DNA from: Rhodospirillaceae bacterium
GTDB taxonomy: Bacteria; Pseudomonadota; Alphaproteobacteria; SHVP01
NCBI GenBank assembly: GCA_002722055.1
Contig: PBKD01000014.1
Span: forward strand, 419,230 to 483,229
DNA length: 64,000 nucleotides
Direction of reading: 5' to 3'
Positions 12,686 through 60,917 of the stretch are shown here, piece by piece; positions within the stretch are counted from its first letter, which is position 1, and each line of letters begins with the position of its first letter. A program made the position numbers and the translations under genes. The notes below the pieces were generated by a model. It saw only the letters and a program-made list of their open reading frames with translations. It was not told where the DNA came from and did not search any database.

Positions 12686-13694
12686 TTAATTTAGATATTT
12701 CTTCAGGTATAAAATATTTATAGGAATCAGCTAAATCTTTAAGTTCTGGGTTTTTTAAATTATTTTTTAAATTTTTCCATACTCTATTCATATGTTTTTG
12801 ATAACTTAATTTATTATCTCTTAATTTTAATCTTGCAAAAACGCCCAGAATTCTTGTATTTCGTTGAGCGCCAACACAATCATATATTAAATTAAACTCA
12901 TCTAACGTCCCTTTAAAAAATTGTAGGTAACGTTTCTTTAATTTATTTTGTAATTTTTCACTTACAGTAATTCTGGCATCCTGAAGTAAAGAAACAAGAT
13001 CATATACTGCTGGACCTATTAAAGCATCTTGAAAATCTAAAACACCAACCCTTTTAAAACTTGAACGGTCGTTTAACCAAACTAAGTTATCTATGTGATA
13101 GTCAAAGTGAGTAATTACATTAGATGCAGAGTGGATTTTTTTTGCTATTATTGACCAGCTATCTATGAAGTCTTTTTTTAATTTTTGATTTTTAGTTTCA
13201 CCAAAGTAATACGGTAGAGTCCAATCTAAAAATATTTGGACCTCATCCAAAATTCTTTTCTCAGAAAAAACCTCTAAGTTTGACGGCAAATCTGCATCCT
13301 GTAAAATTTTTAAAACATCAATAGCACTCTCATACAATAAGTCATATTTAGAATTATTTTGTATAAAATTATTAAATGTTTCTCTACCAAAATCTTCCAA
13401 TAATACAAAGCCTTTATCATGATCTACTTTAAATATCTCAGGAACACTTAAATTTATTTCCTTTAAAATATTTGCTACATTTAAAAATCTTTCTAAATTA
13501 ATAAATTCTTGATCATCCATTAATATCATACTCACTTCTTGATTATATAACCTGTGATATCTTCTATGAGAAGCATCACTCTTCATCAATACTAATTGAT
13601 CTGAACTGATATTATTTTTTGTCAGGAAATCTTCAATAAGATGTAATTTTTTTTTAATTACCATAACCAATTTTTCTATTTTTCCATTTCCCAA
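12678..13694 (-). CDS. aminoglycoside-phosphotransferase-fold kinase, AmgK-like (anomeric MurNAc/GlcNAc kinase family)
   Basis: 338 aa with the catalytic loop HFDYHIDNLVW (HxDxxxxN) and the VLDFQDA metal-binding motif; conserved partner of the downstream nucleotidyltransferase. Confidence 0.6.
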   Translation of the reverse strand: MGNGKIEKLVMVIKKKLHLIEDFLTKNNISSDQLVLMKSDASHRRYHRLYNQEVSMILMDDQEFINLERFLNVANILKEINLSVPEIFKVDHDKGFVLLEDFGRETFNNFIQNNSKYDLLYESAIDVLKILQDADLPSNLEVFSEKRILDEVQIFLDWTLPYYFGETKNQKLKKDFIDSWSIIAKKIHSASNVITHFDYHIDNLVWLNDRSSFKRVGVLDFQDALIGPAVYDLVSLLQDARITVSEKLQNKLKKRYLQFFKGTLDEFNLIYDCVGAQRNTRILGVFARLKLRDNKLSYQKHMNRVWKNLKNNLKNPELKDLADSYKYFIPEEISKLNG

Positions 13695-56016: not shown

Positions 56017-56526
56017 ATGCCCCCAAACATAAAAAAGTTAGTTTTTTTATTTCAAAATTTATTATTAATATCGGTTTTTATAGTTTTATTTTCACCTAAT
56101 ATTTTAGCTGACAAGCAAATTATATCACCATATTTTGGAAGTATAAAGTGGAATAAGGTAAATGTTCGAACTGGTCCGGGACAGCAGTATCCCATAGAAT
56201 GGGAATTTCATAGAAAAAACCTACCTATTGAAATAATAAGTAAATACGAAAATTGGTTAAAGATAAGATACTTAGATCAAGACACCGGTTGGGTTCATCA
56301 AAGACTTGTGTCTAAGTCACGCTATGTAATGATAAGTGGATCTACTCAAATACTTAGAAGTAACCCAGACAATAGCTCAAAGGCTATTTTAATCGTAGAA
56401 GATAAAGTGCTTGCAAAACTTTTAAGCTGCAATCAAAAGTGGTGTAAGGTTAGTATAAAGCAAAAAAATGGCTGGATACTTAAAAACTATCTTTGGGGAG
56501 TTTATCCAGATGAAATTCTAGAGTAA
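56017..56526 (+). CDS. secreted bacterial SH3-domain protein
   Basis: 169 aa with a signal peptide and two SH3b-like repeats (NVRTGPGQQYPI…; ILRSNPDNSSKAI…). Confidence 0.6.
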   Translation: MPPNIKKLVFLFQNLLLISVFIVLFSPNILADKQIISPYFGSIKWNKVNVRTGPGQQYPIEWEFHRKNLPIEIISKYENWLKIRYLDQDTGWVHQRLVSKSRYVMISGSTQILRSNPDNSSKAILIVEDKVLAKLLSCNQKWCKVSIKQKNGWILKNYLWGVYPDEILE

Positions 56527-56539
56527 AAAATATACAATT

Positions 56540-57139
56540 TTAATCTAGGTCTGAGATAAGAGAGTTCCTTAAATTATCATTAATTTTTTCTGAATAAAAA
56601 TACTCTGTATGATCAAAAGAAATTATAAATGGTTGACTAAAGTCCTTAATTAATTCTTTCTGTTTATTTGATAAAGGAAAATGCAAAAAGTGAACAGCGG
56701 AAGTTTTGCCATCTGATCTTGTTCTCTCAACATCATGTTCAGAATTAGCTAAAACTGAGTCTTCTCCAATAATCAATTTTATGCAATTCTCTATCCCTGA
56801 TACTTTTCTTAGAAAAATTTCTCTCTTTTCCTTAACATCTAATTCAAACATTAGAGTTGCCACTATTTCTGAACCACTAGGAACAAGCGATCTATAAGCT
56901 TCAATTTCTTCTTGAGCTTGTTGGAACCCACCTTTTTCAATATAAATCATTTCGTGTATTTGGTGCCAAATAGTTTCATAATTTTCAAAGAAGAAAGTTG
57001 CGTAGGGGCCAACGGACAATCTCCTGTTTCTTTTGGTTTCTACTATTTTTGTCTTTTTCTCTTTTCTAACTTTTTTATAACTCTCAGGATGGAGAATATC
57101 ATCTATTTTTATAGTTTTTTTTATATTATTCATTTGCAT
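56540..57139 (-). CDS. DUF3501-family protein
   Basis: 199 aa, the last gene of a rubrerythrin / Fe-S protein / DUF3501 operon; a family call by pattern memory, not by computation. Confidence 0.5.
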   Translation of the reverse strand: MQMNNIKKTIKIDDILHPESYKKVRKEKKTKIVETKRNRRLSVGPYATFFFENYETIWHQIHEMIYIEKGGFQQAQEEIEAYRSLVPSGSEIVATLMFELDVKEKREIFLRKVSGIENCIKLIIGEDSVLANSEHDVERTRSDGKTSAVHFLHFPLSNKQKELIKDFSQPFIISFDHTEYFYSEKINDNLRNSLISDLD

Positions 57140-58472
57140 AACTTTCCGCTAATATCTCAATTGGGTGATAGGTGCTTATTTTATATTTATTATTATTTGT
57201 TTCATTGGCTATTTCACAAAGATGTTGAGCCGCTAGAGGACATTCTGACACTATAACTGTATCTTCAGAGGAAAAGATTTTTTTTGATGCCATTCTTCCA
57301 TATTTCTTTGCCATGGGATATGTATTTTTTTTGACACCAAATGAACCCCCGTGCCCAGAACATTTATCTATTATTTTTATGTTTAAATCTGGAATGTTTT
57401 TCAGCATATCAACAGATTTAATGCCTATGTTTTGAGCTTTAGTATGACAAGCTATATGAAGAGATATATTGTTTTTCTTAATATTTTTTCCAAAAATAAA
57501 ATCTTCTTCTTTGGATATGTCTGATACATACTCACAAATATCTTTAGTAGCAGAACTAATCTTTTTTAACATATCATTTTCAGGGTCTAATAGTTGCCAT
57601 TCTGATTTAAGCATTAGACTACATGAGGGTGTAAGTGTTAAAATTGTGTAGCCTTTATTAACCCATGGTAGTAAATTGTTTGATATTCTTTTGGCTTTAC
57701 CAAGAACTGATGGAAGATCTCCAGCTTCTAATTTAGGCATACCACAGCACTCTGGATAAACAAACTCTACAATTATATTATTTTTCCTTAAAACTTTAAG
57801 TGCGGCTGAAGCAACTCGCGGCAAATTATAATTTACAAAGCATGTTGTATAAACCACAACCTTTCTTCTTTCTAATCCTGGCATACCATGATTTGTATAT
57901 TTTATCCTCTTTAGAAATTTATCAAATGTCTCCCGATTAAACTTTGGCAACTTAGCATCTTTATGAATGCCTGCAAAAAATTGTATTAATTTTCTAGATA
58001 TAATATTTTTTTTTGAAAAAAACCAATTTAAAATTGGGGCGAAATATGATCCAATTTTTCCAGTTAAATCTGTATTAAGTATAAATTTATTTATCAGTGA
58101 TAACCCGCTTTTTTTGATTTTTTTTGCATATCTATATCTTAACATTAAGTGTGGAAAATCAATGTTAAATTCATGAGGTGGCACATATGGACACTTTGAT
58201 AAAAAACACAAATCACATAAAGTACATGCCTCTACTACTGAATTAAAACTAGAACTATTGACAGAATCTAATTCACCCGTTTCAGATTCATCAATTAAAT
58301 CAAAGAGTCTCGGGAAAGAATCACACAGATTAAAGCACCTCCTACAACTATGACACACATCAAATACTCTACGCATTTCTGCATCTAGTTGTGATAAATC
58401 ACTAAAGCTAGCTTCCTTCCAGTTTAACGGATGCCTTGTAGGCGCACCTAAGCCTCCTTCTTTGGATGACAA
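57126..58472 (-). CDS. heterodisulfide-reductase-related (HdrD/GlcF/GlpC-like) Fe-S protein with two 4Fe-4S motifs and two CCG cysteine-rich domains
   Basis: 448 aa with CHSCRRCFNLCDSFP and CTLCDLCFLSKCPY ferredoxin motifs, then CCG-type repeats (…TTCFVNY…PECCGMP…; …ACHTKAQ…KCSGHGG…ECP). The start is probably TTG. Confidence 0.8.
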   Translation of the reverse strand: MSSKEGGLGAPTRHPLNWKEASFSDLSQLDAEMRRVFDVCHSCRRCFNLCDSFPRLFDLIDESETGELDSVNSSSFNSVVEACTLCDLCFLSKCPYVPPHEFNIDFPHLMLRYRYAKKIKKSGLSLINKFILNTDLTGKIGSYFAPILNWFFSKKNIISRKLIQFFAGIHKDAKLPKFNRETFDKFLKRIKYTNHGMPGLERRKVVVYTTCFVNYNLPRVASAALKVLRKNNIIVEFVYPECCGMPKLEAGDLPSVLGKAKRISNNLLPWVNKGYTILTLTPSCSLMLKSEWQLLDPENDMLKKISSATKDICEYVSDISKEEDFIFGKNIKKNNISLHIACHTKAQNIGIKSVDMLKNIPDLNIKIIDKCSGHGGSFGVKKNTYPMAKKYGRMASKKIFSSEDTVIVSECPLAAQHLCEIANETNNNKYKISTYHPIEILAESYANE

Positions 58473-58491
58473 AACTTACCTCTAAAGATTG

Positions 58492-58527
58492 AAGGAGAAT
58501 ATCTAACTGAAAATAAATATTCTCCTT
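58492..58527 (-). other. intercistronic stem-loop (11-bp stem) between the rubrerythrin and Fe-S protein genes
   Basis: AAGGAGAATAT…(14-nt loop)…ATATTCTCCTT perfect inverted repeat in the 67-bp spacer; a possible partial terminator or mRNA-stability element. Confidence 0.4.
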
Positions 58528-58539
58528 AGATTAAATTTT

Positions 58540-58962
58540 TTATTTATCTAAATTATCAAGTGCTTTTTGAAAACGTCCAGCATGAGATTTTTCTGCTTTT
58601 GCTAGAGTTTCAAACCAATCTGCTATTTCATCAAAGCCTTCATCTCTTGCAGTACGTGCCATTCCAGGATACATATCAGTATATTCATGAGTCTCTCCTG
58701 CTATAGCTGCTTTTAGGTTTGAAGCGGTGTCTCCTATAGGCTCCCCTGTTGCAGGATCTCCTACCTCTTCTAAAAACTCAAGATGCCCATGTGCATGGCC
58801 AGTTTCACCTTCTGCAGTTGACCTAAATACTGTTGAGACGTCATTAAAGCCTTCAACATCAGCTTTTTGTGCAAAGTATAGATAACGCCTGTTAGCTTGG
58901 GATTCCCCTGCGAAAGCATCTTTCAAGTTTTGCTCAGTCTTTGAATCTTTTAGTGAAGACAT
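58540..58962 (-). CDS. rubrerythrin (di-iron ferritin-like domain only, no rubredoxin domain)
   Basis: About 140 aa with [27 protein letters not shown] and the two ExxH di-iron motifs ([21 protein letters not shown]). The start was chosen at the ATG with an AAAGGA RBS rather than the upstream TTG in the track. Confidence 0.85.
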
Positions 58963-59046
58963 GAAATATCCTTTCAAAAAAATGTCTAGAATTTAAGAAT
59001 AATTTACAAGTAAAACATTTAGTCATTATGTAAGAATAAGTCAATA

Positions 59047-59063
59047 TTTAGAATGATTCTAAT
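59047..59063. promoter_or_regulatory. Irr-box / iron control element (ICE)-like palindrome TTTAGAA-TGA-TTCTAAT
   Basis: Matches the rhizobial ICE consensus TTTAGAA-N3-TTCTAAA at 16/17 positions. It lies in the 115-bp spacer about 85 bp upstream of the rubrerythrin ATG, immediately downstream of irr. Confidence 0.45.
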
Positions 59064-59092
59064 TAAACTTTTAAATTATTGGAATATAGTTT

Positions 59093-59545
59093 TTATTCAG
59101 AATGATTTTCAATATTAATTACAATATTTATTTGTTGGATTTTCTTCCCTTTAGGTAAGTCGGGTAGATTACTTATTTTTACCGAACCATCTGGAATATC
59201 ACTTAATTGTCCCGTAGATTTGTCATAAATATGATGATGTGGCTTTGTTATTGTATCGAAAAAAGATTTATTTTGATCTACGTATATCTCTTTAATAATT
59301 TCAAGTTCTACAAATTTATTTATTGTATTATAAACACTTGCTAATGCAACTTTTTTATTTTTTCTAATAAGTTCTTTGAAGATACACTGAACAGTAAAAT
59401 GTTTGGGATTTTTAGAAAATATCTCATTAGCAATAATCAATCTTTGTTTGGTAAATCGAAACCCTGACCTATTTAAAATTTTATCAATATCATTTAATAC
59501 AATTTTAATGTCCTTTTTGTTAATCACCAGTAACAATCCTATCAA
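59093..59545 (-). CDS. irr: Fur-family transcriptional regulator, iron response regulator Irr-like
   Basis: About 145-150 aa. It aligns by eye with Bradyrhizobium Irr: FTKQRLIIANEIF, VALASVYNTINKF (Irr: VSLATVYNTLNQL), SFFDTITKPHHHIY (Irr: TYFDTNVTTHHHYY) and the PDLPKGKKIQQINIVI tail. It has the HHH motif and no C-terminal Cys Zn-site. The true start may be an internal GTG, which would reduce the overlap with the upstream gene. Confidence 0.75.
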   Translation of the reverse strand: MIGLLLVINKKDIKIVLNDIDKILNRSGFRFTKQRLIIANEIFSKNPKHFTVQCIFKELIRKNKKVALASVYNTINKFVELEIIKEIYVDQNKSFFDTITKPHHHIYDKSTGQLSDIPDGSVKISNLPDLPKGKKIQQINIVINIENHSE

Positions 59546-60917
59546 CTAACTGCTTAACTGAGGGAATAAAACCATTCGAGTAATAAGGATCTTCAGAAAA
59601 TCTGTATGCTGAATGACCTGCAAACATCAAATCATTCTCTGTCTCATTTGTATGAATAACAGACTGTAATGTTTTTTGAATACAAAAAGATCTTGGATCA
59701 GGTTTTTTACCTGTTGTAAATGGTTTTTCCTGAGACCAATTAGAAAAAGAGCAATGGCTTAAACAACCCATACAATTAACTTGATCTTCTCTAATTTGCT
59801 TCATTTCTTTTTCAGTAACAAATAAAACTGAGTTATCAGGTGTTTTAAAAATTTTATCATAGCCCTGATTTTTCCAATCTAATATTTTTTGGTTATCACC
59901 GGAAGAGATAAAAATTGATTTTTTCCTTGCCCCTAATGATAGCTCTAAATCTTTTTTTTCATTTTTTTCTGTTGAATAACCTACTTGTCTCTCACTTCTT
60001 TCAATTAAATTTTGAATAAATGAGTTATTTACTGCTGAAGACCACATACCAGTAGGGCTAAATTTATTCAATTTAACATCACCTGAACTTAATCTTAATA
60101 ATTTCTGTTTCCACGAATCTGATATCGGGCTTTCTAAAGTTAGTAGGGGGCGAGTTCCAAATTGAAAAACTATCTGCCCAAGTTCAGAATTATCGATCCA
60201 GTCTTGCCATTCTCTCAAAAACCAAACACCTCCAGCCATAATTATGGGTACATTTTCAAGCCCAAACTCCCTCATACGCTGTCTTAACTCAAATACCCTT
60301 GGAAAGGGATCTTCAGGTTTATCAGGATCCTCACTATTAGAAAGACCATTATGCCCACCTGCTCTCCAAGGATCTTCGTAAACGACTCCACCTAACCAAT
60401 CTGAAAATTTATGATAAGCTCTTTTCCATAAAGCTCTGAATGCTCTCGCAGAGGACACTATTGGATAGTAGTAAACATCAAATTGTGAAGCTATCTCAGC
60501 AACCTTGTAAGGCATTCCTGCACCGCAAGTTATACCGTTTATTAATCCTCTAGCACCTTCAAGAACGTTATTCAATATTCTTTCTGCCGCTGCCATTTCC
60601 CAAAGTACATTCATATGCACCGGACCATGACCGCTAGCTTTTTCATAAGCTATTTGGGCCTGTTCTATCGCACCTTTAATTGCAAAATCAACTAATTCTT
60701 CATGCCTCTCTATCCTAGTTCTTCCAGAATATATTTGAGGTATAATATTCCCATTAGAGTCATAAGAATCGGCGTTGACTCCTGAAAAAGTACCAACTGC
60801 TCCAGCTGCTGCCCATGCTCCAGCACTATGACCATTTGTCACAGCAACACCTTTACCACCCTCTATTAATGGCAGTGCATCAAAACCAGATATTGAGACA
60901 CTATTTAAATTTTTCAC
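59520..60917 (-). CDS. nitronate monooxygenase (NMO / 2-nitropropane dioxygenase-like) family FMN oxidoreductase with a Cys-containing C-terminal extension
   Basis: 465 aa with the N-terminal NMO signature PLIEGGKGVAVTNGHSAGAWAAAGAVGTFSG and the TIM-barrel IIMAGGV. An extra roughly 120-aa C-terminus contains CMGCLSHC. Confidence 0.65.
   Translation of the reverse strand: MKNLNSVSISGFDALPLIEGGKGVAVTNGHSAGAWAAAGAVGTFSGVNADSYDSNGNIIPQIYSGRTRIERHEELVDFAIKGAIEQAQIAYEKASGHGPVHMNVLWEMAAAERILNNVLEGARGLINGITCGAGMPYKVAEIASQFDVYYYPIVSSARAFRALWKRAYHKFSDWLGGVVYEDPWRAGGHNGLSNSEDPDKPEDPFPRVFELRQRMREFGLENVPIIMAGGVWFLREWQDWIDNSELGQIVFQFGTRPLLTLESPISDSWKQKLLRLSSGDVKLNKFSPTGMWSSAVNNSFIQNLIERSERQVGYSTEKNEKKDLELSLGARKKSIFISSGDNQKILDWKNQGYDKIFKTPDNSVLFVTEKEMKQIREDQVNCMGCLSHCSFSNWSQEKPFTTGKKPDPRSFCIQKTLQSVIHTNETENDLMFAGHSAYRFSEDPYYSNGFIPSVKQLVDRIVTGD

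Follow-up and report, generated by a model that had tools for sequence, protein, structure and literature searches.

The locus described here lies on the minus strand of a 64,000-nucleotide stretch of contig PBKD01000014.1 (positions 419,230 to 483,229, hereafter the window), which has a GC content of 31% and comes from an uncultured marine alphaproteobacterium. It consists of four open reading frames (ORFs), encoding an Irr-like regulator of the Fur family (irr), a rubrerythrin (rbr), an Fe-S protein (rfo) and a DUF3501 protein. An earlier note on this DNA, made from the letters alone, had read these genes, together with an Irr box or iron control element (ICE) in the spacer between irr and rbr, as an Irr-controlled redox module linked to iron and peroxide. 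Each of the four ORFs is backed by Pfam/NCBIfam matches, and the palindrome is present as described, agreeing at 16 of 17 positions both with TTTAGAA-N3-TTCTAAA and with the published consensus TTTRGAAYNRTTCYAAA (PMC1698941). The nearest named relative of the window Irr is found in a metagenome-assembled genome (MAG) labelled 'Rhodospirillaceae bacterium' (61% identity), and the identity to the Irr of Pelagibacteraceae loci is ~35%; the organism is not a member of the Pelagibacteraceae. A metagenome scan with the Irr protein as query gave no confirmed relatives, and the close relatives used below came from exact-protein look-ups instead.

We compared the gene arrangement with that of 80 genome loci collected by Rbr similarity. 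The irr gene is located directly upstream of rbr-rfo-DUF3501, collinear and on the same strand, in 54 of them. The taxon labels of these 54 loci are all alphaproteobacterial or unspecific, and the groups named include Rhodospirillales, Kiloniellaceae, Parvibaculales, Sneathiellales, Rhizomicrobium, Dongiaceae, Stellaceae, and Pelagibacteraceae. The loci of the set labelled Sphingomonadales, Phenylobacterium or gammaproteobacterial did not show irr in this position. The recurrence of the rbr-rfo-DUF3501 triad, stated in the earlier note, was borne out: with two exceptions, the loci reaching far enough downstream keep the order.

The window taken by itself gives weak evidence for the ICE. One site with at most one mismatch was observed in the 64 kb, where 0.23 were expected, at least one such site occurred in 22 of 100 shuffles, and the GC content of the irr-rbr spacer is 18.5%; the chance of such a site inside this spacer of ~130 nucleotides (nt) is roughly 5e-4. 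The only other window site with two mismatches or fewer (13481-13497) lies inside an ORF and was rejected; 3.8 such sites are expected by chance. With the comparative data the element is secure. When the best match within 260 nt upstream of rbr was scored for each locus, an ICE with up to three mismatches was found in 49 of the 54 loci having an adjacent irr (no mismatch in 6, one in 14, two in 18, three in 11, and four to five in the other 5), and the loci without an adjacent irr showed mostly five to seven mismatches. The density of sites with at most two mismatches was 2.7/kb upstream of rbr and 0.018/kb over the other 398 kb of these loci, an enrichment of ~150-fold. Because many of the ICE-bearing loci come from genomes with 60-70% GC, AT-richness cannot explain the motif. 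In related loci the palindrome is preserved by symmetric variants, for example TTTGGAA-N3-TTCCAGA, the pattern to be expected where a dimer binds.

The position of the ICE relative to the promoter is also fixed. The window spacer was aligned with four sequences of its own clade (Irr ~60% identical) and one Pelagibacteraceae locus. The ICE is conserved among these close relatives, and in the five sequences of the clade the ICE-TA-TTGACT block is invariant at TTGACT, the intervening sequence is variable, and GACTAAAT, 16 nt past TTGACT, is again invariant. When the 49 more distant loci were anchored on the ICE, TTGAC(A) began at a distance of 3 nt in 28 and of 4-6 nt in 13 more, and was followed ~17 nt later by a cATAt-like -10 element. 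The ICE abuts TTGAC(A) in this way in AT-rich genomes and in those with 60-70% GC alike. We therefore take TTGACT and the extended element downstream of it as the predicted promoter of the rbr operon, with transcription predicted to start near position 59010, which would place the ICE at roughly -55 to -39, abutting the -35 hexamer. An alternative promoter from a consensus scan, TTGAAA-18-TATATT (59112-59083), was rejected; it lies in the coding end of irr and has no counterpart beside the ICE in the distant loci. In that scan, promoter-like sites were no commoner than in shuffles, and no terminators were found.

Table 1. Features of the irr-rbr-rfo-DUF3501 locus in window coordinates
Feature	Position	Strand	Basis or remark
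irr, Fur-family Irr-like regulator, 144 aa	59093..59527	-	start GTG 59527; maximal ORF to TTG 59545
ICE / Irr box TTTAGAATGATTCTAAT (minus strand ATTAGAATCATTCTAAA)	59047..59063		16/17 consensus match and conservation
Predicted -35 hexamer TTGACT, rbr operon promoter	59039..59044	-	2 nt downstream of ICE
Predicted extended -10 TGaCTAAAT	59017..59025	-	16 nt after -35 hexamer
rbr, aerobic-type rubredoxin-less rubrerythrin, 140 aa	58540..58962	-	start ATG 58962; ORF to 58977
13-bp hairpin, rbr-rfo spacer	58493..58526	-	folding energy compared with shuffles
rfo, GlpC/HdrD-like Fe-S protein, 448 aa	57126..58472	-	Pfam CCG; NCBIfam GlpC-like
DUF3501 protein, 199 aa	56540..57139	-	PF12007; start overlaps rfo end

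Some details of the layout need to be corrected. The spacer between irr and rbr had been given as 115 bp, but it is 130 nt long by the gene starts used here, which were called on marine contigs of identical sequence in Tara Oceans and further ENA assemblies (one such contig measures 672 kb). Translational coupling does not extend to rbr, rfo, and DUF3501 all together, as had been proposed, because rbr and rfo are 67 nt apart; the overlap between rfo and DUF3501 is real and amounts to 14 nt, or to 8 nt when it is counted from the second ATG. The hairpin in the rbr-rfo spacer is perfect and has a folding energy of -20.6 kcal/mol (z -4.4), with none of 200 shuffles being equally stable. No U-tract follows it, and among three close relatives it is kept in L087 and L093 and missing in L090. 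The hairpin could stabilise the part of the mRNA that encodes rbr, or act as an attenuator that lowers rfo and DUF3501 relative to rbr.

The gene upstream of irr, nmo (59520-60917, minus strand), encodes an NMO/FabK-like flavoprotein of 465 aa with a Cys-rich stretch (CMGCLSHC) at its C terminus. The two genes are probably co-transcribed, because the GTG start of irr overlaps the nmo stop codon at 59520-59527 (GTGATTAA). An NMO homologue (58-68% identical) is located upstream of rbr in ~18 of the 80 loci, mostly directly before irr, and in the Pelagibacteraceae its place is taken by fabA-fabB-fabI; irr thus tends to adjoin genes of the fatty-acid-synthesis type. On the other side of the operon, a protein of 169 aa with two bacterial SH3 domains (SH3_4) and a hydrophobic N-terminal segment, probably secreted, is encoded on the plus strand (56017-56526) and converges on DUF3501. 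A convergent SH3_4 neighbour is shared by ~35 of the 80 loci. An Rfam scan of the whole window gave zero matches.

Two observations touch on the operator. A second, weaker ICE-like site, TTGAAAATCATTCTGAA (59096-59112, minus strand), lies in the coding end of irr, with its centre 49 nt upstream of that of the main ICE; it has three mismatches in the window and two in L087 and L090, and its conservation may merely reflect protein coding. In the alphaproteobacterial locus L001 (3586-4001), nmo is followed by a gap of 415 nt and then by rbr, irr is not detectable, and the best ICE has four mismatches, which may represent a natural joint loss of irr and its operator.

The regulator ORF matches Pfam FUR (1e-19) and scores highest with the NCBIfam models IrrA (2e-36; 124.9 bits, cut-off 150) and Irr (1e-34; 119.2 bits, cut-off 170). 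PerR follows at some distance (1e-14, 54 bits), and the best Fur model reaches 4e-10. By these scores the regulator is clearly closest to Irr, with both Irr scores below the equivalog cut-offs. Residues H43, D91, H97, H99, and D110 do not vary among the 58 relatives, and the HXH haem-binding motif is present as HHH at residues 97-99 of 144, with H98 in 52 of the 58. Neither a structural Cys4 site nor a C-terminal CxxC zinc site was found in the window Irr, whose single Cys is unconserved (2/58). This is in agreement with the description of Irr proteins that lack the C-terminal CxxC zinc site (PMC8638967). The N-terminal Cys-Pro haem regulatory motif is not in this protein either, which excludes only the Bradyrhizobium japonicum subtype, as most Irr proteins are without it. 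The Pelagibacter ubique genome has likewise been reported to encode an Irr orthologue that is less similar in sequence to its rhizobial counterparts (PMC1698941).

Rbr matches the Pfam model Rubrerythrin (PF02915, 3e-30) over its whole length, and no rubredoxin domain was found in it. Its PDB matches are the Burkholderia pseudomallei Rbr (4e-71) and sulerythrin (5e-51), and the di-iron ligands E20, E53, H56, E90/E93, E124, and H127 are present by inspection, together with the ExxH motifs. Rbr is 83-92% identical to its homologues across alpha- and gammaproteobacteria. Its partners are less conserved in the 80 loci (36-57% identity for RFO and 30-49% for DUF3501), and this gap points to an unusually strong constraint on the entire Rbr sequence. 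In the aerobic type of Rbr, the only member with a demonstrated peroxidase activity is ferriperoxin from Hydrogenobacter thermophilus, which takes its electrons from NADPH and FNR and is required for aerobic growth (PMC3317640).

The RFO protein matches Pfam CCG (1e-8), and its best NCBIfam model is GlpC-like (3e-57; 194 against a cut-off of 278). Fifteen Cys residues are invariant across 78-86 homologues. Eight of them form the two [4Fe-4S] motifs that the earlier note had recognized (C40/43/46/50 and C83/86/89/94), which are of the ferredoxin type and unchanged in 86 homologues. The two CCG domains that it had also assigned did not both hold, because only the first is detectable with Pfam. 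The CCG region has seven invariant Cys, four (C211/242/243/284) and three (C342/371/411). The first domain consists of C211, C242-C243-G, and C284, with the final CXXC pair missing, and the second is degenerate, with CSG and three conserved Cys. The window RFO therefore does not have the two complete CCG motifs (CXnCCGXmCXXC) of HdrD and GlpC, and on the basis of these motifs it is best regarded as a member of a sister family, as in Cardenas et al. A sequence search with RFO found no relative with a solved structure. The DUF3501 protein matches PF12007 (3e-54) and the uncharacterised structure 3FJV (9e-30). It has been reported that Nitrosomonas carries DUF3501-RFO fusions and that the three genes co-occur tightly (PMC5114695); by analogy, the fusions suggest that the RFO and DUF3501 proteins interact. 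It has also been proposed by Cardenas et al. that RFO replaces the missing rubredoxin domain (PMC5114695).

We suggest, with a probability of about 0.6, that the locus is a self-contained peroxide-defence cassette in which Irr represses rbr-rfo-DUF3501 through the ICE. As a di-iron peroxidase, Rbr would reduce H2O2 as well as organic hydroperoxides. RFO, with its two putative [4Fe-4S] clusters and a CCG-type cluster, would stand in for the rubredoxin domain and feed electrons to Rbr, and the DUF3501 protein would be an obligate partner, probably docking on RFO. An Irr dimer on the ICE, which ends 2 nt before the -35 hexamer, would plausibly reach the hexamer, so that Irr would most likely act as a repressor. 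Apo-Irr, which would predominate in cells low in haem or iron, would keep the iron-rich operon down, and haem at the HHH motif, possibly together with an oxidant, would release or destroy Irr and bring about de-repression. This scheme draws on the known behaviour of the family: apo-Irr binds the ICE, and haem bound at HXH abolishes DNA binding or triggers degradation (PMC7762939). Repression is favoured because the bound dimer would reach the -35 hexamer and because the core promoter is near consensus. Repression in iron- or haem-poor cells would also be economical, since the products are rich in iron (a di-iron site and at least 2-3 Fe-S clusters). A precedent is ccpA of Rhodobacter sphaeroides, whose 5' end has been mapped; its Irr box, ~40 nt upstream of that end, is bound by Irr in an electrophoretic mobility shift assay, and its expression is ~2-fold higher in an irr mutant in low iron (PMC3413700). 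It is the one experimentally mapped promoter that shares the geometry predicted here, and Irr represses it mildly.

Peroxide defence as the function is pointed to by analogy with ferriperoxin and by two further lines of evidence. In Magnetospirillum gryphiswaldense, the expression of a rubrerythrin gene that may be the triad orthologue, MSR1_07950, is 2.1-fold lower under anoxic than under oxic conditions (PMC9549626). At the gammaproteobacterial locus L034 (2935-3867, minus strand), which belongs to a MAG labelled Alteromonadaceae, an OxyR-like LysR gene (NCBIfam OxyR 1.8e-67, below the cut-off) is divergent from rbr-rfo-DUF3501 and no ICE-like site was found at this locus. Another peroxide regulator appears to occupy the position of irr there. 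Several points weigh against the proposed scheme. In iron-limited P. ubique, rbr (SAR11_0399) was up 1.57-fold (P=0.025) and the abundance of Irr was unchanged (PMC2864753). The rise is contrary to a simple repression by Irr in low iron, yet it is small, and iron starvation itself brings oxidative stress. The regulator does not reach the equivalog cut-offs of the Irr models, a fold search with the DUF3501 protein returned weak, generic beta-sandwich matches alone, and an ICE just upstream of a -35 hexamer could equally be an activator site. Overall, the core of the idea put forward in the earlier note, an Irr-controlled module, is upheld by the gene order and the ICE in the 54 loci, but its emphasis on iron is weaker than the link to peroxide, considering OxyR at L034, the oxic expression in M. 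gryphiswaldense, and the change of only 1.57-fold in P. ubique.

The location of the ICE wholly upstream of the predicted -35 hexamer also agrees with the opposite sign of regulation, in which Irr, bound upstream of the hexamer in low iron, would recruit RNA polymerase and so counter the oxidative stress that accompanies starvation. Irr can activate or repress depending on the position of the ICE, direct activation being common (PMC7762939), and the rise of rbr in iron-limited P. ubique is in the expected direction. However, a -35 hexamer and an extended -10 element so near consensus would be unusual for an activator-dependent promoter, Irr acts as a mild repressor on ccpA, whose Irr box has the same geometry, and the induction of an iron-rich three-protein system during iron scarcity would be uneconomical in a streamlined genome. 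We therefore regard activation as rather unlikely. A chance origin of the palindrome in AT-rich sequence, with the gene adjacency being passive synteny, could be argued from the shuffles and the low GC content of the spacer, but the same palindrome stands at the same position in 49 of the 54 loci, those from genomes of 60-70% GC included, is enriched ~150-fold, and is largely missing where irr is not adjacent. A chance origin is effectively excluded by these comparative data and is extremely improbable in our view.

A further reading concerns the signal. The regulator might be a PerR-type peroxide sensor, which would repress the operon until metal-catalysed oxidation or an oxidant-dependent turnover removes it, the 'iron' label being inherited from the rhizobia. 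The regulatory site of Bacillus subtilis PerR, which we take to be H37, D85, H91, H93, and D104, has the same spacing as H43, D91, H97, H99, and D110 of the window protein. The best PDB relative of the latter is Leptospira PerRA (5NL9), which is also without the zinc site, the only likely target of Irr here is a peroxidase operon, and OxyR takes the position of irr at L034. Similarities between Irr and PerR, as well as operators of PerRA resembling the Irr box, have already been remarked upon (PMC8638967). On the other hand, the E-values of the Irr models are better than those of PerR by ~20 orders of magnitude, the operator has the form of a canonical ICE, and HXH is the documented haem site of Irr (PMC7762939). 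We consider a PerR-type sensor to be slightly less probable than activation, although it overlaps with the proposed haem-responsive repression by Irr, as both predict a repression that is relieved by oxidants.

The connection between Irr and rubrerythrin and the gene trio have each been published as predictions. Rodionov and coworkers found one or two ICE sites per genome in Pelagibacter, Rhodospirillum, and Magnetospirillum, and predicted minimal Irr regulons whose member is either a di-haem cytochrome c peroxidase gene or one for a rubrerythrin-like protein; in P. ubique it is the rubrerythrin gene (PMC1698941). The window resembles this minimal regulon in its Irr of lower similarity, its ICE, and its rubrerythrin target, and two Pelagibacteraceae loci of our set (L070 and L077) have the same irr-ICE-TTGACT-rbr-rfo-DUF3501 layout. 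It differs from the Pelagibacter regulon in lineage and in that irr overlaps an NMO-like gene and is not next to fabA-fabB-fabI. The main text of that survey is silent on the partners RFO and DUF3501 and on a constant distance from the ICE to the -35 hexamer (PMC1698941). Because one or two ICE sites genome-wide have been reported in such organisms, the Irr regulon here is probably a single operon. The enrichment of the palindrome at other iron genes, which the earlier note had proposed as a test, is inappropriate for the same reason.

The view that the triad lacks a published description or function is outdated. The RBR/RFO/DUF3501 trio was named by Cardenas et al. in 2016 and co-occurs in 185 of 4461 genomes (PMC5114695), Gray et al. 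in 2020 described it as the 'aerobic-type rubrerythrin system', a functional module also present in protist mitochondria (PMC7050145), and the activity of ferriperoxin was already known (PMC3317640). The window operon agrees in all three families and in their order, with an Rbr without rubredoxin, an RFO of the COG0247/GlpC-like CCG type, and a DUF3501 protein corresponding to 3FJV. Unlike the system of Cardenas et al., the window operon is compacted, with an overlap of rfo and DUF3501 and a clade-specific hairpin after rbr. Regulation by Irr is not addressed in that paper, in which the terms 'Irr' and 'Pelagibacter' are absent (PMC5114695).

Among ICE promoters that Irr represses, the nearest counterparts are those of blr7895/mbfA and bfr in B. 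japonicum and of mbfA and ccpA in R. sphaeroides, which share with the window the operator consensus, the regulator family, and iron-containing targets in oxidative stress or storage. However, the ICE of mbfA overlaps the transcription start, whereas that of the window is just upstream of the predicted -35 hexamer; blr7895 is an erythrin-VIT1 membrane protein, unlike the soluble Rbr of the window; and B. japonicum Irr has the Cys-Pro haem regulatory motif that is missing here. In anaerobes, PerR is encoded beside a rubrerythrin gene. The PerR systems and Leptospira PerRA are similar to the window in the control of peroxide defence by a Fur-family protein and in the five regulatory residues, and PerRA also lacks the Cys4 zinc site. 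They differ in that the window regulator scores as Irr, the operator is an ICE and not a PerR box, and the Rbr is of the aerobic type with RFO and DUF3501.

Irr and the ICE appeared confined to the Alphaproteobacteria in the 2006 survey (PMC1698941). Seven loci of our set (L016, L017, L046, L054, L057, L067, and L076), labelled Gammaproteobacteria or Nitrospiraceae, carry a palindrome TTTAGA(C/A)-N3-GTCTAAA 32-65 nt upstream of rbr, and irr is not directly upstream of rbr in any of them. In one of these, L067 from a Chromatiales MAG, an Irr-like gene of the Fur family (NCBIfam IrrA 1.4e-35) lies beside the triad, and in three other gammaproteobacterial genomes an Irr-like gene is located away from rbr. 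Irr-like proteins fall into more than 4000 clusters, many of which are labelled Gammaproteobacteria. This suggests that control of the Irr/ICE type is not confined to the Alphaproteobacteria. A wider proposal, which we regard as less likely than not, is that irr-ICE-rbr-rfo-DUF3501 represents the ancestral Irr system, with a PerR-like local repressor that later became a global iron regulator in the Rhizobiales. Irr-like regulators and TTTAGAC-N3-GTCTAAA boxes would then control the operon in genomes of the Gammaproteobacteria or Nitrospira type, and RFO and DUF3501 would constitute a new electron-input unit, with a quinol or thiol donor, serving a di-iron peroxidase known from protist mitochondria as well.

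The window is thus a rediscovery of published predictions in a different, uncultured marine lineage, and its value lies in confirmation and refinement, not in discovery. Added here are the extent to which the four-gene synteny holds (54 of 80 loci), the figures for the ICE enrichment, and the fixed spacing of 2-3 nt from the ICE to the -35 hexamer, together with the correlation of the ICE with an adjacent irr and the hint of Irr-like regulators with a related box beyond the Alphaproteobacteria. If the proposed scheme is true, streamlined marine alphaproteobacteria spend one of their few transcription factors on a single peroxide-defence operon. The locus would then offer a very simple model in which the sensing of haem, iron or an oxidant by Irr could be studied, and a genetic handle on RFO and DUF3501, the partners of aerobic rubrerythrin that are present in protist mitochondria too.

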